Assembly (NCBI RefSeq): GCF_003334765.1
Contig: NZ_QOWT01000052.1
Length of the DNA: 17,115 nucleotides
DNA from: Escherichia coli
GTDB lineage: Bacteria > Pseudomonadota > Gammaproteobacteria > Enterobacterales > Enterobacteriaceae
Reading direction: 5' to 3' (one strand)
Shown here: piece by piece, positions 5,781 through 17,115 of the stretch
How the letters are laid out: each line of letters starts with the position of its first letter
Numbering within the stretch: the first letter of the stretch is position 1
Position numbers and translations under genes: made by a program
Notes under the pieces: generated by a model
Database searches by the model: none
What the model was told of the DNA's origin: nothing
What the model saw: the letters and a program-made list of their open reading frames with translations, nothing else

Positions 5781-6018
5781 CTGTCAGCGCTGCGAGGACA
5801 TGGCTGCTTAAAAAAAGAACAAATGGTAGTGTCCGCTATTGCCAGTACACCTCAGATTCTGGGGATAACTGCGAAAAGAATATGTGCCAGGAAAGTCGGC
5901 TCCCGGGAAAAAGACCGCTGGCGGCGCAGCTGCTGGATACGAAAGCTGAGCTGAAAGGATCCCGGGAGGACGTCCGTAAACTTCAGTCCCTGGCCCGTCA
6001 TGACGGGAAGGTGAAAAA

Positions 6019-6660
6019 GTGAATGCGGACACCTGGACCCGCCTGCAGGCCTTCCGACATGCTCTGGAGCTGACTTCCTGTGAGGCTTCTCTCACCGCCG
6101 GGTATGATCACCTGAAGGATTTCCCGGCCGGTTGCAGCGAGCTGGCCAGCCAGACGCTGACTGATTATCTGACGGAAGACGGCAGCAACCTGTACTCCTG
6201 TATTGTCGGTATGCAGTGGGATAATGGTCCTGGCAGATACGGCCACGTCATTGCCGCCCCTGCCAGGGACTATATCGACCTGACCCTTGATCAGTTTCCA
6301 GGCTATCATAACCGGATTGTGGCAGAGCCCGTTGAGTCCGGCGGACAGCTCGCGGCAGACCTCAACAGGGAGCCTGCCATCAGTACAGCTGATGGAATAG
6401 TGGCCAGCGCATCAGATAAGGTTAATTACATTACTGAACAGAAAAATCGCCAGCCAATGGTGATCATTACAGAATGTTACAAACTGATCAGAATGACGGC
6501 AAGATTTATACCAATGTGCCAGTCATCTCAACTCTTCCAGCACCAGATATTCCCTCGCTTATTTATCATTTCAGACGTTGGCTCCTGCAGTTTGTCCAGG
6601 AACACCTTAGATCGTTTAGCTACTGACTGGAAGGTGACACTGTCCGTCCTGTCGCTATAG
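6019..6660 (+). CDS. Hypothetical protein; the C-terminal third may be spurious read-through
   Basis: 213-aa ORF with a GTG start overlapping the stop of a small upstream ORF; GC-rich backbone-like codon usage; no recognisable motifs. Confidence 0.35.
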   Translation: MNADTWTRLQAFRHALELTSCEASLTAGYDHLKDFPAGCSELASQTLTDYLTEDGSNLYSCIVGMQWDNGPGRYGHVIAAPARDYIDLTLDQFPGYHNRIVAEPVESGGQLAADLNREPAISTADGIVASASDKVNYITEQKNRQPMVIITECYKLIRMTARFIPMCQSSQLFQHQIFPRLFIISDVGSCSLSRNTLDRLATDWKVTLSVLSL

Positions 6661-7239
6661 GGCTTGATATAAACCAGGCAGGCAAGGGATCTGGTTAACA
6701 CCTTTCCTTCCATAAAGTGTTTGAAGATCCAGAGATACGTATCCACAAGCTCCAGCCCTGTACTCAGTGTCCCCGACTGGAAGACCTGCGGTTCAGCTGG
6801 TATTTCCGTTACATCCATGACCGGTGTCTGCGCAGCAGTGCCTGTCATCAGGATATTCATGGAGCCAGTCTGTATGCGCCTCTGGCGTTGAAACAAACAT
6901 ATGAAGTGTATTTCGGATATGACTGTACGCTCAGGAAGTACGGCAGATTCCGTCAAAAATTACCTGTAAAGACAGACTTCAGAAAAAACGGTGCTCGCCG
7001 CAGACCGGTGACCGGGCGAAGCCCGCGAACCGGCGAGGAAGCGCAATGGATCTGTAATCACAGTGAGCAGGTACGCCCTGAAGCCTTCATAATCGGTAGT
7101 GTATGCTGTTTTTCCGGAATGATTTATCCACATATCCAGAGGCCCGATCCAGTAAATAGATCCATGAATGATCAATAAAGGATCCATTAAAGATCCCCAT
7201 ATCGCTACAAACCTTGTCACTCATGGGCCGGGACCACGA

Positions 7240-7345
7240 TCACATAAGCTGTGGCATGTTACTGATAAACTGTAATATGCTAATGATAAGCTGTATTCAG
7301 TAATGCATATACTGAAGTAAGCTAATGACATAAACTATGGTCAGT
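7240..7345. repeat. Iteron-like repeats upstream of repA (RepFIB-type origin repeats)
   Basis: Repeated ATAAGCTGT / ATAAACTGTA-type motifs, at least five copies. Confidence 0.5.
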
Positions 7346-7499
7346 ACGCCAGACTCTGTTGTTAAATACAGACTGCAGGTTTTTCTTCAGTCAGTTAGCG
7401 GGGCTCTGACACACGATTTGCTGTTTATTCTTTTACTGTCCACAGGCAGGAGGCTTTCTGGAAAACGAAAATTCAGACATCAAAAAACTGTTCGGCGAG

Positions 7500-8477
7500 G
7501 TGGATAAGTCGTCCGGTGAGCTGGTGACACTGACACCAAACAATAACAACACCGTACAACCTGTGGCGCTGATGCGTCTGGGCGTCTTTGTACCGACCCT
7601 TAAGTCACTGAAGAACAGTAAAAAAAATACTCTGTCACGCACCGATGCCACGGAAGAACTGACGCGTCTTTCCCTGGCCCGTGCAGAAGGATTCGATAAG
7701 GTTGAGATCACCGGCCCCCGGCTGGATATGGATAACGATTTCAAGACCTGGGTGGGGATCATTCATTCCTTTGCCCGCCATAACGTGATTGGTGACAAAG
7801 TTGAACTGCCTTTTGTCGAGTTTGCAAAACTGTGTGGTATACCCTCAAGCCAGTCATCACGCAGGCTGCGTGAGCGCATCAGCCCTTCCCTGAAACGCAT
7901 TGCCGGTACCGTGATCTCCTTTTCCCGCACCGATGAGAAGCACACCCGGGAATACATCACCCATCTGGTACAGTCAGCCTACTACGATACTGAACGGGAT
8001 ATTGTTCAGTTACAGGCTGATCCCCGCCTTTTTGAACTGTACCAGTTTGACAGAAAGGTCCTTCTTCAGCTTAAGGCGATTAATGCCCTGAAGCGACGGG
8101 AGTCCGCCCAGGCACTTTACACCTTTATAGAGAGCCTGCCCCGGGATCCGGCACCGGTATCGCTGGCGCGGCTGCGTGCACGCCTCAATCTGAAGTCTCC
8201 TGTATTTTCCCAGAACCAGACGGTCAGACGGGCAATGGAGCAGTTGCGCGAGATTGGATATCTTGATTACACGGAGATCCAGCGGGGGCGGACAAAACTC
8301 TTCTGCATTCACTACCGGCGTCCCCGGTTAAAAGCACCGAATGATGAGAGTAAGGAAAATCCGTTGCCACCTTCACCTGCGGAAAAAGTCAGTCCGGAGA
8401 TGGCGGAGAAGCTTGCCCTGCTTGAAAAACTGGGCATCACGCTGGATGACCTGGAAAAACTCTTCAAATCCCGCTGA
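7500..8477 (+). CDS. repA: Plasmid replication initiator RepA, RepFIB-type
   Basis: 325-aa ORF beginning [30 protein letters not shown]..., recalled as IncFIB RepA; flanked on both sides by iteron clusters; GTG start. Confidence 0.8.
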
Positions 8478-8478
8478 A

Positions 8479-8747
8479 CATAAACTGTAGTCAGTGAAGA
8501 GTGCTCCTTTACTGACTACAGCTTATATTATCAGGTGCAGTGAGTGGTCTGCTCACTGCAGTTTATATTCAGTTTCCTGCAGTGCTGCCTGTGGCTGAGC
8601 TGCCATCTGCCTGTCCCTTACGTGAGTCACCCCGTAACCTGATGCTGAGGCATTTCTCCCTTTATAAAACATGGTTTACTCACTACAGCTTATCTACCTG
8701 CTCCAGCTTATGTTATGTCTGTTCTGCTGACCACTGCTTATATAAGG
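8479..8747. repeat. Iteron-like repeats downstream of repA
   Basis: Repeated ACTACAGCTTAT / CTGCAGTTTATATT / CCACTGCTTATATA motifs in both orientations. Confidence 0.5.
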
Positions 8748-8755
8748 AAGTGCCG

Positions 8756-9496
8756 TTACTTCAGGGGAGGCAGTGTACGCAGGATCTCCGCAGCATCCCG
8801 CCCGTCACCTGTGAAAGGCACTGCCAGCGTGGCAGCCATATCCAGTGCAAACACTCTGGTATAAACCTCCATAGAACGTGGATCCCTGTGACCAGCCAGT
8901 GCCTGGATGACTTTCCGGGGCTGGCGGTGATAGAGCATGTGCATGATATAGCTGTGCCGGAAGGTGTGTGGTGTGACCGGAATCGAAAAGTGCACCCCGT
9001 CAGCTTCGGCCCGCTTCACTGCCTGTTTCAGCCAGTTCCGCATCGTTTCATCCGTCACAGCCCATAACGGTGCACGGCGCCGGGGCCGGGTGGTGATCAT
9101 CCAGCTCTCCATCTGCCTGACATAGCTTATATCCGTCAGCGGGACCAGGCGGACTTCATCTTTTGGAGGGCGCCCGCGTCGCGCACGCACTTTTTCGGAC
9201 AGGATCCGCACAAACGGTCTTACTCCATCCAGGTCAAATGATTCCGGTGTCAGCATCCGGGCTTCGCCAATACGCATTCCGGTATTCCAGAGGGTGGCGA
9301 ACAGCATATGGTGACGCTGATCCGGCATATAGAAAAGAAGGGCACTCACTTCCGGGGCCAGCAGGTAGGCCGGTGTGGCCCCCGTGGAAGTGGCCATTCT
9401 TCTCAGGGAGAGCGCTGTTGCAAAATCCACCCCTGGCGCAATGGGTAACAGGGAGACGCGTTCTGGTGAATTCTGCAGGGGAATGACATTGTTCAT
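8756..9496 (-). CDS. int: Tyrosine site-specific recombinase (phage-integrase family)
   Basis: 246 aa with C-terminal [12 protein letters not shown]...[16 protein letters not shown], matching the R-H-R-Y catalytic region (LGH...Y motif). Confidence 0.8.
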
Positions 9497-9712
9497 GAGT
9501 TATTTTTCACGTAGCACACGCACTGTTTATGGATACAGTTATTCTGACCTGAACGCACGGATCCTTCCACGACAATAAATCGCAGCGCGCGGATCCTTTT
9601 GTTTGCTTATCACGCATTATTGCGGGTAAAACCAAATACGTAAAGGCGCGTTTTGCCGCAGGGATCCTGTCTTAAGCCAGTCATGGCGCGGGCTGAGAGC
9701 TGGTTTGCCGTT

Positions 9713-9858
9713 TTTGGGAGAATTGGGGTAATGCCAGGACAAACAGGATCGAACCAGAAGGGGGAGGGTGCAGAGAAGGAGAGGAAGCGCTACGTGAATT
9801 CTGACCTGGTACACCCCTGTAACCCTGTCTGTTTCCACGTAGCGCAATGCGGTTACTG
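9713..9858 (+). repeat. Repeat A: about 146-bp element, diverged direct copy of repeat B; contains a 10-bp inverted repeat GCGCTACGTG (9787..9796) / CACGTAGCGC (9836..9845)
   Basis: Start TTTGGGAGAATTGGGGTAAT and the core CGCTACGTGAATTCTGACCTGGTACA are near-identical to repeat B. Confidence 0.5.
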
Positions 9859-9859
9859 A

Positions 9860-10109
9860 CTACTGCCAGTTGAGATGACGCCCGGCATCCTGATGCTGAC
9901 TTAAAATACGGATAATAATAATATCTGTATCAGTCTGAATAAAATAAAGCATATGCCGTTCAACGGGCAGTGCGAAGATATCTTCCACCAGTTCAGGCCG
10001 GGGAGTGCCGATATTATTATCACTCATAACCTGAAAAATGCCGGCACCCGTAATACCAGATATCCTCCAGATCCTGACTGGCTTTAGGTGTGAGTTTAAC
10101 GGTTTTCAC
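9860..10109 (-). pseudogene. parE: ParE/RelE-family toxin, apparently frameshifted near 10050..10055
   Basis: GTG start overlaps the parD stop; N-terminal frame reads VKTVKLTPKASQDLEDIWYY.. then stop; a second frame reads ..PELVEDIFALPVERHMLYFIQTDTDIIIIRILSQHQDAGRHL, a ParE-like C-terminus. No ORF of 60 aa or more was called here. Confidence 0.5.
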
Positions 10110-10362
10110 CGGAAGCCCTCGTACCAGCCTTAACTTTTTTCAGGAACGCGTCCTTTTCCCACGCCACAGGTTCGCCGCTGCTCAGGCCTTCTGCCAGTAA
10201 ATCCCGCAGGGCCTGGAGACGTGACTCTGCCTGTTTCTCGCGCAGGAGACGAAGTGACTCGCGAATCACTTCACTCTGAGTACGATAATCACCTGATTCT
10301 ATGAGAGATTCAATGAATTCACGGAGTTCATCTCCGAGATCCACTGTCATTGTTCTGGCCAT
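10096..10362 (-). CDS. parD: ParD-family (ribbon-helix-helix) antitoxin
   Basis: 88 aa, MARTMTVDLGDELREFIESLIESGDYRTQSEVIRESLRLLREKQ...; RBS GAGG upstream; operon with the downstream toxin. Confidence 0.75.
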   Translation of the reverse strand: MARTMTVDLGDELREFIESLIESGDYRTQSEVIRESLRLLREKQAESRLQALRDLLAEGLSSGEPVAWEKDAFLKKVKAGTRASGENR

Positions 10363-10641: not shown

Positions 10642-12579
10642 TTAAAATAAATTATCTAATCCGAGCAAACTTTCTTTTTCCTTTTTTATCATGTTGAGAT
10701 GATTTAGTGATTTTAAATAAATATAATTATACATATCTTCAACCAAGTTTTCTAATACTAGGAAAACCCTGTTTTTTACACCTGCCTGTGTTAATAATTT
10801 ATCTATAAGCATACTGTTTTTATCGTTTATGATTCCATCAGATTTTATTTTATCGAGGCCTGAAATTATCTTTAAACATGAAGGTGTCGTAATTGCATTG
10901 TCAAAAATAATGTCATGCAAAGAGTATGTTGATAATTTTTCTATATCAGAGAAGGCGAGGACATTCAGAATGTTATCATTAAATGGACCGATTGATACAT
11001 CGTGCATAGATTCAAGTTTATTGTTATTTGATTTTCTATCTTTACGTAGTTCTTTATTTTGAACAATAACTCTCGCATCACCGATTAGTTTATAATAGAA
11101 ATTTTCAGCTAATGTGCTCGCTGAAAAATTCTCTTCTTTAAAACCAATCTCTTGCATTAACGGAATGATTAACTCTTCCGTTGTATTTTCCATGTCTATG
11201 TGGTTTAAAAAAACCGCAGTATTCAGCATAATAGAGTTATTTTTTAGTTCCTTTACCAAACTCAGCAATATCTTACTTTTTATACTAGATGCGCTGTTTT
11301 TAATGAATTCAGCCGCATGATACTCTTGAATTGTTTTATGGACAAATGTAAATATTTCGGCGCCATCTCTTCTGATCAAACCTGTGACATCGATATAGTC
11401 ATTAATAAGATCTTCGGCAAAAGTATCAGAATAATTGAGCCCCAAAACTTTAAATGATTTTTTAGTGATATTTTTTAAGTTATCCCATGATAATTGGGAT
11501 GAACTTTTTAGCGATATGTAACATAAAGCACAAAATATTTCTTTTGATTCACTAATTGAGAGGTTTGTTTTTCTATGCCTTTTATAGAAATTTTTTGTTT
11601 TATCATGGCCTTCAAATAGTATATTAAATATTCTATTGTAAAATTCTCTTGCATTTTTAGGCATTGAATCGAGATGCTTTTCACAAACACAAAGCAGTAC
11701 AGCAAGAATTGGAGTATTAATTGAAGAAAGCAATTGTTTATTTTTCTTAAGCGCTGCTATAAGTTGATCAGCTGACTCCTTTGGTAAAAAATTACCTATT
11801 ATGGAAAAAACATCTTTCTCTGTTAGTGGTTCAACATGATAATTATTTATTCCTGCAGTAGTGCATATTTCTGTTCCAGGCCGAGACGTTGATATTAATT
11901 GAGTCTGAAAAGAATCATTTAAATGCAATATTTCTTTTAAAATAGTTTCTCTAATATCAGGGGATATTTCATCAAAACCATCTAGTAGTAATATAATTTT
12001 TTTACTTTTCAGTAACCCCTTTAGGTCAGCATTAGTGCAGTTTAATTCGAGAGTAGTTAATGTTTTTATTAAACTATCTTGTATTGAATTGTTTTCCAAG
12101 TTTCTAAGATCAAAAAAGAATGGTATTTTATTAATTTTTGAATTATTACTTAAAATAGCTAGGAATATTTTTCTTAAAATTGTTGTTTTCCCTTGTCCAG
12201 CAGCGCCAATTATATTTAATATATTTTCATTTTGAATACAAAAATCATTATTAATTAAAAGGTCTTCATTTGTACGGTTGTTTTTTACCGTGAGTGGATG
12301 ATAAAATTCATCTATAAAAGCATCATCATTTAAATTATATAAAGTTCTTACTGACAAGTATCTTTTAATACATAAATCAAAATAATGAGTGAAAGTATCT
12401 TTCTTCAATATTTGTTCAATAAGTACTTTCGCATTATCAGTTCCATGTTTCCACTTTTGTGAAACTACTGAATTTAACAATTCGTAAGTTGATTTTGTTA
12501 AAGATTCACTAAAAGTTTCTACCATTTTATTGGTGGCCACAATACCCAGTGCAGCAGCAGATATTGTTAACGGTTCCAT
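10642..12579 (-). CDS. NACHT-domain NTPase (bacterial NACHT / STAND family), 645 aa
   Basis: Walker A GAAGQGKTT; NACHT-type Walker B ILLLDGFDE; sensor-1 ISTSRP; RBS AAGGAG 6 nt upstream of the ATG; AT-rich. Confidence 0.85.
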   Translation of the reverse strand: MEPLTISAAALGIVATNKMVETFSESLTKSTYELLNSVVSQKWKHGTDNAKVLIEQILKKDTFTHYFDLCIKRYLSVRTLYNLNDDAFIDEFYHPLTVKNNRTNEDLLINNDFCIQNENILNIIGAAGQGKTTILRKIFLAILSNNSKINKIPFFFDLRNLENNSIQDSLIKTLTTLELNCTNADLKGLLKSKKIILLLDGFDEISPDIRETILKEILHLNDSFQTQLISTSRPGTEICTTAGINNYHVEPLTEKDVFSIIGNFLPKESADQLIAALKKNKQLLSSINTPILAVLLCVCEKHLDSMPKNAREFYNRIFNILFEGHDKTKNFYKRHRKTNLSISESKEIFCALCYISLKSSSQLSWDNLKNITKKSFKVLGLNYSDTFAEDLINDYIDVTGLIRRDGAEIFTFVHKTIQEYHAAEFIKNSASSIKSKILLSLVKELKNNSIMLNTAVFLNHIDMENTTEELIIPLMQEIGFKEENFSASTLAENFYYKLIGDARVIVQNKELRKDRKSNNNKLESMHDVSIGPFNDNILNVLAFSDIEKLSTYSLHDIIFDNAITTPSCLKIISGLDKIKSDGIINDKNSMLIDKLLTQAGVKNRVFLVLENLVEDMYNYIYLKSLNHLNMIKKEKESLLGLDNLF

Positions 12580-13611: not shown

Positions 13612-14658
13612 ATGATAACGTTTTCTATGGATGAAAGTGGCTATACGGGTTATGACTTACTCCACAAAGAGCAAAAATTCCAAGGCGCGTCATCAATATT
13701 AATAAACCATGATGACGCCAGTCGTCTGATAAAAGAATATTTCCCCAAACTTCAAGCCGATGAATTGAAGTACAGCTCGCTGAAAAGAAGAGATTCCAAC
13801 CGCAAGCCATTATTTGAATTGCAAAAGCATCTCTTATCTAATTACCCATGTATAACATGCGTAGGTGATAAACGCTTTTTACTAATTCTTATGTTCATCG
13901 ATTATGCTGTTGAACCATTCTATTATGATTTTGGGATTAATCTTTATGAGGATGGCGGTAACTTCTCAATGGCATCAATGGTGTATTACGTTGGACCAGC
14001 GTATTATGGCTCTGCCTTTGATGATGTTCTGCTTCAGTTTCAAAATGCTATGAAAGAAAAAACATTAGATTCAGTGAGTTTGCTAATAAGCAAAATAAGG
14101 AGGCTTGACTGGCAAAGGTTAAAAGAGTTTTTTGGTCCTTTGGCATTTAACCACCCAGATTGTATTGATGCCATCATGACTGATGGAATTAGCACTGATG
14201 CCTCATTTACTATTTTAAATGCATTAATTTCTCGCACGGAAATGATGTCCTCTGGAGAGTATGCAATTGAGCATGATCGTTCTAAAAATCTGCTAACTTA
14301 CAATGAACGCCTTAACTTTTTGATCAATTGTGATAAGGAAGGAGAGTTTAAACATTCCGAGATAGCAACTATCTCATTCCCACTAAACCTTAAAAAAGTC
14401 TATCAAATTGATTCGAAAGAAAGCCCAAGCGTGCAATTGTGTGATGTTCTTATAGGTGCATGTATTGAATCAGTTTATCAATTAATGGACTCTAAGGTAC
14501 TCAATCAAAATTCCGTTCTTTCACTTTACCAAGATAGCCAGTTAATACATTTCATACCTGATATAGATTTTGAAGGACAGAAAAAATTTAGGAAAGGCAG
14601 TCAAAGTGAGGAGTATCTTACGTTTATTCAAAATGAAATCTACTCTAGTAAACTTTAA
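13612..14658 (+). CDS. DUF3800-like protein (uncharacterised), 348 aa
   Basis: N-terminal FSMDESGYTG (DESG motif) and C-terminal VQLCDVLIGA (QxxD-like motif), as recalled for DUF3800; RBS GGAG; AT-rich. Confidence 0.6.
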   Translation: MITFSMDESGYTGYDLLHKEQKFQGASSILINHDDASRLIKEYFPKLQADELKYSSLKRRDSNRKPLFELQKHLLSNYPCITCVGDKRFLLILMFIDYAVEPFYYDFGINLYEDGGNFSMASMVYYVGPAYYGSAFDDVLLQFQNAMKEKTLDSVSLLISKIRRLDWQRLKEFFGPLAFNHPDCIDAIMTDGISTDASFTILNALISRTEMMSSGEYAIEHDRSKNLLTYNERLNFLINCDKEGEFKHSEIATISFPLNLKKVYQIDSKESPSVQLCDVLIGACIESVYQLMDSKVLNQNSVLSLYQDSQLIHFIPDIDFEGQKKFRKGSQSEEYLTFIQNEIYSSKL

Positions 14659-17038: not shown

Positions 17039-17041
17039 TGA
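15794..17041 (+). CDS. DDE transposase (integrase-core type, ISNCY/IS481-like), 415 aa, C-terminally truncated by about 45 aa relative to the homolog at 12949..13560
   Basis: N-terminal HTH, central core (..QIDGCDHHWF..YVDDATSRLM..) and C-terminal DVWHYPDGHKELRLNG; RBS GAGGAG. The stop codon TGA is supplied by the first bases of the 77-bp repeat. Confidence 0.8.
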   Translation: MAINDAGMFTVKEINRLKILQDVIDRNIRPGQAAEMLVITPRHCSRLLKRYRQYGPLGMNNQSRGRTGNRLLPASLTDQALSIIREHYRDFGPTLAREKLEEVHGLVLGKETIRRLMIKAGLWIPRRQRAPKIHQPRYRRPCTGELIQIDGCDHHWFENRGRPCTALVYVDDATSRLMHLLFVKSESTFTYFEATRGYIEKYGKPMILYSDKASIFRVNNKHATTGPGETQFARAMRCLNITPLCAETSQAKGRVERAHLTLQDRLVKELRLKGICTIEAANAFAEEYMADYNRRFAKEPLHDFNAHRPLALDDDLDAEFTWREPRRVSKNLTVQYDKMLYLIEDNEYSRRAIGKYIDVWHYPDGHKELRLNGVLLPYSTYDRLSEVDPVAIVDNKRLGHVLDVARQVQRKRDNN

Positions 17042-17115
17042 TCCTACCCACGTAATATGGACACAGGCCTAAGCGAGGTTCTTGTTTTCAAATTGTTCCG
17101 GACTGAGGCCGCCAC
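17039..17115 (+). repeat. Right copy of the 77-bp terminal inverted repeat (IS3-family-like terminus)
   Basis: Identical to the reverse complement of 1..77. Confidence 0.6.

Follow-up and report, generated by a model that had tools for sequence, protein, structure and literature searches.

The window, by which we mean the whole 17,115-nucleotide stretch of Escherichia coli DNA that was analyzed, carries near its center an initiator gene, repA, with short repeats on both sides, and a convergent gene for a small tyrosine recombinase, int. The features of this region, with positions counted from the first letter of the window, are listed here.

7124-7132, plus strand: DnaA box TTATCCACA, matching the consensus perfectly, outside the upstream iterons on their origin side.
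7146-7195, no strand assigned: cluster of five GATC (Dam) sites, at 7146, 7159, 7170, 7181, and 7192, lying on 11-bp tandem repeats.
7240-7348, plus strand: upstream iterons, five direct copies of about 21 bp phased at 21 to 23 bp (7240-7262, 7261-7283, 7282-7304, 7303-7325 [weak], and 7326-7348).
7448-7453, plus strand: Shine-Dalgarno sequence AGGAGG, 4 nt ahead of the CTG, the pO157-type (functional) allele.
7458-8477, plus strand: repA, the RepFIB initiator gene, 339 amino acids from the CTG.
7500-8477, plus strand: repA as the mechanical open reading frame, 325 amino acids from a GTG, the start in most annotations.
8476-8745, no single strand: downstream iterons of about 21 bp, six or seven, mostly inverted, the copy-control/incompatibility set. 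The near copies are 8476-8498 (plus), 8508-8530 (minus), 8526-8548 (plus, weak), and 8548-8570 (minus); the far group is 8675-8697, 8693-8715, and 8723-8745 (all minus).
8571-8674: iteron-free spacer of about 100 bp between the two downstream iteron groups.
8756-9496, minus strand: int, tyrosine recombinase of 246 amino acids, convergent with repA.
9112-9134, minus strand: lone iteron-like site within int, GGATATAAGCTATGTCAGGCAGA.
9497-9846, minus strand: conserved noncoding region upstream of int, a candidate Int recombination or regulatory site, with three GCTACGTGAA, two ATTCTGACCTG, and three CGCrCGGATCC motifs.
9644-9639 (-35) and 9621-9616 (-10), minus strand: predicted sigma-70 promoter, facing int.
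9787-9845: 24-nt imperfect inverted repeat within the int-upstream region.

We read positions 7124 to 9846 as a complete RepFIB (IncFIB) iteron-type replicon of the pO157/F lineage together with its associated recombinase, a reading to which we give a probability of roughly 0.9. A preliminary description of this DNA had proposed a RepFIB-type replicon, open to refutation by a repA unlike the initiators of that family. The RepA protein proved to be 100% identical to that of the pO157 RepFIB (339 amino acids from the CTG) and to match the F RepFIB protein at 323 of 325 residues. The gene, the iterons on either side of it, and the tyrosine recombinase were all found where that description had placed them, but its span of 7240 to 9496 was too narrow, as the origin reaches to the left of 7240 and the DNA belonging to int to the right of 9496. 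An iteron-flanked repA next to an integrase-family recombinase is indeed the known RepFIB layout, being shared by F, pO157, and Klebsiella IncFIB(K), and the rep-int arrangement is common to Citrobacter and Enterobacter FIB plasmids as well. The alignment of the iteron region that had been suggested as a check gave 97 to 98% identity to the iteron regions of the F RepFIB. An IncFIB module with repA, flanking iterons, and a small recombinase is ordinary, textbook, and already known, and the present one leaves the understanding of RepFIB unchanged.

At the DNA level, the window is 97.6% identical to plasmid F (NC_002483.1) across positions 5853 to 9751. The PLSDB record CP088797.1, typed IncFIA,IncFIB (PLSDB/MOB-suite), is 100% identical over positions 7150 to 9600, and 2956 of the PLSDB matches listed, which number at least 5000, cover at least 80% of that interval. 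An Rfam scan for structured RNA in the region gave nothing at the gathering threshold, and what appeared at E<1 was noise. PADLOC gave no match to RepA, Int, or a 213-amino-acid open reading frame to the left of the origin, so the replicon genes themselves are not defence genes. That 213-amino-acid frame is also present in F, within the 97.6% identity span.

The closest named relatives differ from the window in instructive places. The pO157 RepFIB of E. coli O157:H7 Sakai (NC_002128.1, 24316-26733) has the same RepA, the same AGGAGG, both iteron sets, and the convergent recombinase, and it is 96.4% identical in DNA over window positions 7084 to 9740, with 88 substitutions; past 9740 its DNA is different, and to the left it is homologous only as far as 7084 and hence lacks the window's ssi-like element (described below) and the 213-amino-acid frame. 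The F RepFIB (NC_002483.1, 35.6 to 39.1 kb), which belongs to the reference plasmid for PlasmidFinder IncFIB(AP001918), shares with the window the 213-amino-acid frame, the DnaA box, the GATC cluster, all iterons, rep, and int. It differs in a single-nucleotide AGAAGG ribosome-binding site and in RepA residues I234 and F281, and the window is without 6 bp (the GCGCGTA region) that F has between the last iteron and the int stop codon. The prototype is the P307 RepFIB, for which the repeats around repA, the CTG start, autoregulation, and the repeat names BCDD'D'' and EFGHIJ were described (Saul 1989 and Spiers 1992/1993, as relayed in PMC11983097); upstream of the CTG the P307 clade has GGCTGGAGGC, whereas the window has GGCAGGAGGC. 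More distant is the Klebsiella IncFIB(K) replicon (e.g., p35657-1, NZ_CP015135.1), which keeps the order of GATC cluster, iterons, rep, iterons, convergent int, and conserved int-upstream DNA. Its Int is 92% identical and its Rep, which starts at an ATG, only 52%; its iterons are different (core TGACTG...ATGC), and its rep-int spacer measures 716 bp against 278 bp in the window. RepFIA (mini-F), with the order ssiA, DnaA boxes, AT-rich region, ori2 iterons, repE, and incC iterons, and with ccdAB-resD and rfsF, resembles the window replicon in architecture and in its handcuffing logic. However, RepA shows no BLASTP similarity to RepE (E=0.05), the iteron sequences are unrelated, and the window int is convergent with rep and lies outside any ccdAB operon, unlike resD.

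The CTG at 7458, 14 codons before the GTG at 7500, is the most likely coding start of repA. RepA is reported to start at a CTG, and to repress its own promoter, in the P307, pO157, and F replicons (PMC11983097). Several comparisons agree with such a start. The only differences between the present RepA and that of F are V234I and L281F in CTG-based numbering, and this numbering reproduces the two positions, 234 and 281, that are given in print for the F and pO157 proteins (PMC11983097). The PHROG 775 family matches RepA from residue 4 (E=2e-137) and thus covers the N-terminal extension, and where the CTG stands, the rep of Klebsiella FIB(K) shows an ATG. In Pfam, RepA matched the Rep_3 initiator family (PF01051) through the winged-helix domain Rep3_N (WH1; E=1.2e-10) and, marginally, Rep3_C (WH2; E=0.047); NCBIfam models gave no match, and a search by sequence found no relative in the PDB. 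A simple consensus scan of the plus strand gave no sigma-70 promoter for repA; the published one overlaps the D repeats. RefSeq records of FIB replicons recurrently begin rep at the GTG instead of the CTG, or truncate it, and some records annotate a spurious antisense frame at 7433-7762.

The two iteron clusters belong to one family of sites. A matrix built from the downstream copies only recovered three upstream copies, and one built from the upstream copies only recovered five downstream copies, against a chance level of 0.4 to 0.6 matches (whole window shuffled 100 times with dinucleotides preserved, same threshold). The core ATAARCTG occurs 13 times in the 17-kb window, eight times inside the two clusters. 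Compared with F, the upstream iterons are 96 to 100% conserved and the downstream iterons about 97% identical; the iteron-free spacer is partly missing in another FIB plasmid (L014). In the literature the upstream repeats are BCDD'D'', acting as the origin, and the downstream repeats are E to J(K), with the control role of EFGHIJ demonstrated experimentally (PMC11983097). The downstream E to J repeats would set copy number and incompatibility through RepA dimers that pair them with the origin iterons (handcuffing). The lone site GGATATAAGCTATGTCAGGCAGA within int lay outside both training sets. The matrix of all sites gave it a score of 16.1 and that of the downstream sites alone a score of 13.7; it could represent the 'K' repeat or have arisen by chance.

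To the left of the upstream iterons, the DnaA box TTATCCACA occurs only once in the window when both strands are searched, and it is kept in F, pO157, and other E. coli FIB replicons; a DnaA binding site within the FIB replicon is given in the literature (Lloyd et al. 2025, legend to Fig. 3; PMC11983097). The five GATC sites beside it compare with a window average of about one per 255 bp, and in Klebsiella IncFIB(K) these tetramers stay in register although the intervening bases differ. By analogy with oriC and P1 oriR, the cluster may be where the origin unwinds or senses methylation. Further left lies a 60-nt element (6991-7050) with 78% identity to the F DNA that precedes the ori2 DnaA boxes, in which ssiA has been described. 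As a DNA hairpin this ssi-like element was not significantly stable (fold z-scores of -0.9 and -1.6).

The recombinase matched Pfam Phage_integrase (PF00589, E=1.5e-14) and is identical to the int product of F at 244 of 246 residues. Its R75, H177, R180, H203, and Y212 align with R148, H244, R247, H270, and Y279 of XerD; the position of the catalytic lysine is ambiguous, since R105 aligns there. Int is probably a plasmid multimer resolvase, because it is 47% identical over 257 aligned positions (E=1e-66) to ResD, the resolvase of the F RepFIA replicon, of which it is a paralogue. In F, rfsF and oriV-1 are placed upstream of ccdA (PMC4398462). A comparison of F 45749-46344 with window 8400-10200 gave no rfsF-like site near int (best E, 0.46), in a search that a short, diverged core could escape. 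The F resD-repE intergenic DNA likewise gave nothing significant with the int flanks, the sole real match being the ssi-like element by the origin. The candidate resolution site probably lies within the 350 bp that precede int, which are very conserved.

This upstream DNA is 86 to 88% identical between the E. coli and Klebsiella FIB modules, and int plus its upstream DNA 80 to 88%, whereas rep DNA is just 60% identical. We tentatively suggest that int and some 350 bp upstream of it (8756-9846) form an independently conserved recombination module, at once a resolution site and a joining point for cargo, though we hold this to be less than an even bet. Another reading, in which Int is an integrase or shuffling enzyme and not a resolvase, and itself joins cargo upstream of int to give a mosaic right-hand boundary, seems unlikely to us. 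It would account for the far greater conservation of int and its upstream DNA than of rep, for the BLAST match ends that cluster at 9739-9741 and about 9845, and for the unrelated DNA that at least five lineages carry past the inverted-repeat element at 9787-9846; a similar role in cargo acquisition has been proposed for rfsF-ResD/RsdB (PMC9412624). Yet identity falls gradually at 9740, into a fast-evolving CT-rich tract (52 to 88% identity), with no clean crossover, a pattern that fits homologous recombination between diverged modules equally well. No duplication of an attachment site was found, and ResD, the closest characterized relative, is a resolvase. Far less credible still is the notion that Int operates a fimS-like promoter switch by inverting the 273 bp that separate two perfect 10-bp inverted repeats (9506-9515 and 9789-9798), attractive as a small neighboring recombinase and a predicted promoter within this segment that faces int may make it. 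The PLSDB records, at least 5000, were all oriented as in the window, and when the query was inverted in silico none of them covered more than 61% of it, and we rejected the switch.

Other alternatives concern the replicon as a whole. Two identical 1258-bp IS3 copies, inverted relative to each other, bound the window, and the 19.5-kb block of IS3, segment, and IS3 lies in opposite orientations in two plasmids that are otherwise collinear, which could suggest that the whole window is an IS3 composite transposon in which replicon and defence-like genes travel together. This is very improbable, since in other plasmids the two halves of the window, left and right, are found apart from each other, with the RepFIB core alone shared, and homologous recombination between the IS3 copies suffices for the inversion. 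No 3-bp target duplications were seen at the outer or inner IS3 ends and inversion is the only event documented, and composite transposition was rejected. A more serious alternative, though one we consider doubtful, holds that RepFIB is intact in sequence yet redundant or silent, with IncFII driving replication and FIB retained in reserve or chiefly for the incompatibility it determines. Both host plasmids (described below) carry a complete IncFII repA/tap/copB set, and given this intact co-resident replicon RepFIB may be dispensable or silent. There are precedents in pCG86, cited in PMC4398462 as a dual-replicon plasmid in which RepFII is active but RepFIB, though intact, is not, and in the F copy of RepFIB, which is defective in rich medium (PMC11983097). 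The defect of F has been traced to the ribosome-binding site, in which the AGAAGG polymorphism alone makes the FIB replicon defective (Lloyd et al. 2025; PMC11983097, section 15). The present copy instead has the pO157-type ribosome-binding site and RepA, a combination with which the pO157 FIB works experimentally as the single replicon of a stable plasmid (Lloyd et al.; PMC11983097), and its iterons, DnaA box, and GATC cluster are all intact. Because its ribosome-binding site and RepA protein are the pO157 alleles, the present FIB copy should, judging by its sequence, replicate by itself, unlike the F copy.

The entire window is 99.98% identical to two complete pAA plasmids of enteroaggregative E. 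coli, pANT_425 and OZ547039, which are roughly 82 to 86 kb in size and of IncFII plus FIB type. Each of these records differs from the window by a few indels and one or two substitutions. There is no byte-identical database record, and the host-plasmid context therefore rests on near-identity. The neighboring genes can thus be taken as plasmid-borne, as had been proposed, on the strength of this match between the whole window and complete plasmids. That they are also mobilisable, the other half of that proposal, did not hold up. The RefSeq annotation of both pAA plasmids contains no relaxase, and their tra genes amount to finO and fragments of TraC and TraD. The nic pattern of F/R100 type had no match in pANT_425, with F as positive control giving one, and pANT_425 showed no BLAST similarity to the oriT-traM-traJ stretch of F (64.5 to 67.5 kb); these oriT checks were of the F/R100 type and made in pANT_425, and OZ547039 was judged by its annotation. 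CP088797.1, the closest PLSDB record among the matches listed, is typed non-mobilizable. From sequence, then, the host pAA plasmid is one that has lost its conjugation genes and its oriT (F type, as tested in pANT_425). Non-mobilizable plasmids make up 804 of at least 5000 PLSDB records having the same replicon, and replicon type is therefore no predictor of mobility.

The SIR2-, NACHT-, and DUF3800-type defence-like genes thus adjoin an IncFIB replicon that should be proficient in maintenance, on an enteroaggregative E. coli virulence plasmid (AAF/I fimbriae, aggR, and dispersin) that the usual criteria mark as not transferable. Such a plasmid would therefore spread its cargo by clonal expansion, by recombination among F-like plasmids, or by IS3 rearrangement, and not by conjugation. 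The cargo next to the present FIB replicon is a ParDE/NACHT/DUF3800 island.

The replicon at the centre of the window was correctly recognized in the preliminary description as RepFIB, a well-known and already described module with iterons on both sides of repA and an adjoining tyrosine recombinase. Translated from a CTG codon at 7458, RepA shows 100% amino acid identity to the RepFIB protein of pO157 (the Sakai plasmid, NC_002128.1), and the 325-aa frame of the ORF list is identical at 323 residues to that of plasmid F (NC_002483.1), so the mismatch to RepFIB initiators that had been named as refuting evidence is clearly absent. Numbered from the CTG, the two differences are V at residue 234 and L at residue 281 (I and F, respectively, in plasmid F), and these are both of the reported differences between the F and pO157 RepA proteins (Lloyd et al. 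2025, PMC11983097). The 325-aa frame matched the Pfam family Rep3_N (WH1; E=1.2e-10), and a Rep3_C match was marginal. DNA identity was 97.6% to F over 5853-9751 and 96.4% to pO157 over 7084-9740. F shares the layout, a tyrosine recombinase, a "RepB family" rep gene and then an identical 213-aa hypothetical protein (WP_000990665.1), and in pO157 the homologous gene is annotated "RepFIB (P307 replicon)" with a recombinase adjoining. The 213-aa reading frame, at 6019-6660 in the window, had no match in Pfam, PHROG or PADLOC. At least 5000 PLSDB plasmids matched window 7150-9600; among the matches listed, 2956 covered at least 80% of it, and the hosts were for the most part Escherichia and Klebsiella.

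Elements of the replicon, in window coordinates
7124-7132, perfect DnaA box TTATCCACA, its sole occurrence in the window
7146, 7159, 7170, 7181, 7192 (starts), five GATC sites in 11-bp tandem repeats, lying after the DnaA box and ahead of the first iteron
7240, 7261, 7282, 7303 (weak), 7326 (starts), all + strand, upstream iterons with 21-23 bp phasing
7448-7453, + strand, repA ribosome-binding site AGGAGG, read from the sequence
7458, + strand, probable CTG start of repA, at the position given in PMC11983097
7500-8477, + strand, repA in the ORF list, 325 aa
8476 (+), 8508 (-), 8526 (+, weak), 8548 (-), 8675 (-), 8693 (-), 8723 (-) (starts), downstream iterons

A repeat finder returned related motifs on either side of repA. 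Iterons were anchored on the core ATAARCTG, 8 of whose 13 copies in the window fall within the two clusters, and their 23-nt consensus is taAnATAAgCTGTAGTcAGTAaA. Circularity was avoided by building a matrix from one cluster and scanning the other. The downstream-trained matrix found three upstream iterons and the upstream-trained matrix five downstream iterons, compared with 0.4 to 0.6 matches at the same threshold in dinucleotide shuffles of the whole window. Because each cluster recovers the other above the shuffled level, both are real and not due to chance. Another iteron-like site, outside the training sets, lies within the int coding region (9112-9134, - strand; scores 13.7 to 16.1). 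Inverted pairs of downstream iterons at 8485-8521 and 8536-8560 form long hairpins with T-rich tails just past the repA stop, and these could double as repA terminators; terminator-like matches around them were not more numerous than in shuffles.

In P307, pO157 and F, RepA binds the iterons, and the upstream set BCDD'D'' is associated with the origin (summarized in PMC11983097). The downstream set E-J(K) carries a copy-control and incompatibility function, since it displaces an FIB plasmid by itself; copy control is modelled as handcuffing, a RepA-mediated pairing of downstream with upstream iterons, and rep expression is weak and autoregulated (PMC11983097). The window has all of these cis elements, with 96 to 100% conservation against F. 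The window's RepFIB would presumably work by the published scheme, with RepA acting on iterons, the origin upstream and copy control downstream.

Left of the iterons, the GATC tetramers of Klebsiella IncFIB(K) are in register with those of the window even though the bases between them differ, which argues for a functional cluster; oriC, P1 oriR and other Dam/SeqA-sensitive origins would be its analogues. A 60-nt GC-rich element at 6991-7050, including GGGCGAAGCCC, has 78% identity (E=1e-8) to a stretch of F RepFIA that directly precedes the ori2 DnaA boxes; its orientation matches, and its spacing to the DnaA box is similar. A single-strand initiation site, ssiA, is described at that place in RepFIA (PMC4398462). 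The element lies outside the region shared with pO157, where homology begins at 7084, and its predicted DNA hairpin was no more stable than those of shuffles.

The FIB rep start is a CTG 14 codons 5' of the GTG usually annotated (PMC11983097). Two independent comparative observations back it here: in rep of Klebsiella FIB(K), the corresponding codon is an ATG, 13 residues ahead of a conserved EVDK, and the PHROG 775 profile alignment begins at residue 4 of the CTG-initiated RepA. The ribosome-binding site is AGGAGG in the window, whereas that of F is AGAAGG, a single SNP that renders the FIB replicon of F defective; with the pO157 version, a single-replicon plasmid is stable (Lloyd et al., PMC11983097). 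Because both ribosome-binding site and RepA are the pO157 alleles, we infer that this copy is replication proficient. A consensus scan located no repA promoter. Some public annotations of this region are artefacts. RefSeq PGAP places an antisense 109-aa 'hypothetical protein' across the repA start of AF58 plasmid 2 (7433-7762, - strand), the frame that the depositors of pO157 called pO157p25, and cuts repA there to 249 aa (7727-8476, + strand); most records start rep at GTG, not at the experimentally established CTG.

The recombinase and the DNA upstream of it
8756-9496, - strand, int, 246 aa in the ORF list
9497-9846, three copies of GCTACGTGAA, two identical copies of the 11-mer ATTCTGACCTG and three copies of CGCrCGGATCC
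9787-9845, imperfect inverted repeat of 24 nt
9859-10108, parE, annotated as frameshifted
10096-10362, parD, intact

Int matched Phage_integrase (PF00589; E=1.5e-14), its residues R75, H177, R180, H203 and Y212 align with the catalytic residues of XerD, and it is identical to F Int at 244 of 246 positions. Its most likely role is multimer resolution, since it is 47% identical (E=1e-66) to ResD, the recombinase associated with F RepFIA, a resolvase acting at rfsF (PMC4398462); no rfsF-like sequence was found adjoining int. Judged by alignment, int and its upstream non-coding DNA are unusually conserved. Relative to a Klebsiella FIB(K) module, Rep is 52% identical in amino acids, and DNA identity is 60% for the rep coding sequence, 48% for the origin region, 80.5% for int, 86% for the first 245 nt upstream of int and 88% for the next 115 nt; the non-coding DNA at 9497-9846 is thus kept better than int and far better than rep. 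A promoter predicted within it points toward int. A CT-rich tract at 9745-9786 is fast-evolving, BLAST match ends of other plasmids cluster at 9739-9741 and near 9845, and unrelated DNA follows the inverted repeat in at least five lineages. Because it is conserved and rich in repeats, with match ends piling up and lineages differing beyond the inverted repeat, 9497-9846 is the best candidate for the Int site, though only a lead, and the sole mildly new one here. Plasmid lineages part ways at or beyond the CT-rich tract. A fimS-like flip of the promoter segment between perfect 10-bp inverted repeats was rejected, as an in silico inverted query found the inverted state in none of at least 5000 records. 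The parDE toxin-antitoxin pair (9859-10362) adjoins the int module.

The defence-like genes were said to be plasmid-borne and mobilizable, and only the former holds. Two complete plasmids match the whole window at 99.98% identity: pANT_425 (86 kb; urine isolate, Brazil) and AF58 plasmid 2 (NZ_OZ547039.1; 82.5 kb; blood culture, UK). A small number of indels and one or two substitutions separate the window from each, and the genes are therefore plasmid-borne. The two plasmids belong to the pAA type of enteroaggregative E. coli and carry aggABCD, aggR, aap, aar and aatPABCD, an IncFII replicon (repA/tap/copB), ParM and ParA partition genes and several toxin-antitoxin pairs. Their transfer region consists of remnants, finO and a TraC fragment fused to an ssb fragment, with a TraD fragment also kept in pANT_425, and neither has an annotated relaxase. 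In pANT_425 we found no F/R100-type nic site, with a pattern that did find oriT in F, and nothing resembling F 64.5-67.5 kb (oriT-traM-traJ). PLSDB gives the mobility type of the nearest record, CP088797.1, as non-mobilizable. Replicon type does not imply mobility, because the records sharing this RepFIB among the PLSDB matches listed include 3,702 conjugative, 494 mobilizable and 804 non-mobilizable ones. Mobilizability was an unsupported inference, and it fails here.

Partial PADLOC matches of the defence-like genes
575-2023, SIR2 protein, 482 aa, matching the ThsA SIR2 region (E=1e-9)
10642-12579, NACHT NTPase, 645 aa, matching candidate system PDC-S60 (E=1e-14)
13612-14658, DUF3800 protein, weak match

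These three are plausibly defence genes, and PADLOC identified no complete known system among them. They lie in islands of about 30% GC, SIR2 on one side of the replicon (about 52% GC) and NACHT and DUF3800 on the other; elsewhere, plasmids carry either the left or the right island, and the RepFIB core is all that these have in common. Compared with the two database plasmids, the window carries one additional C (at 2262) and is missing an A near 2897. A hypothetical gene of 285 to 288 aa (2056-2922) that directly follows the SIR2 gene is frameshifted as a result, which may reflect sequencing errors in homopolymers or genuine pseudogenization. Both plasmids have that gene intact, but in AF58 plasmid 2 it is SIR2 that is split. 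Two identical 1,258-bp IS3 copies in inverted orientation bound the window exactly at its ends (1-77 and 17039-17115), and a search of all IS3 ends revealed no target duplications of 3 bp. The resulting 19.5-kb block, with replicon and defence-like genes (pANT_425 6483-25959; NZ_OZ547039.1 30359-49834), is inverted between the two host plasmids, which are otherwise collinear.
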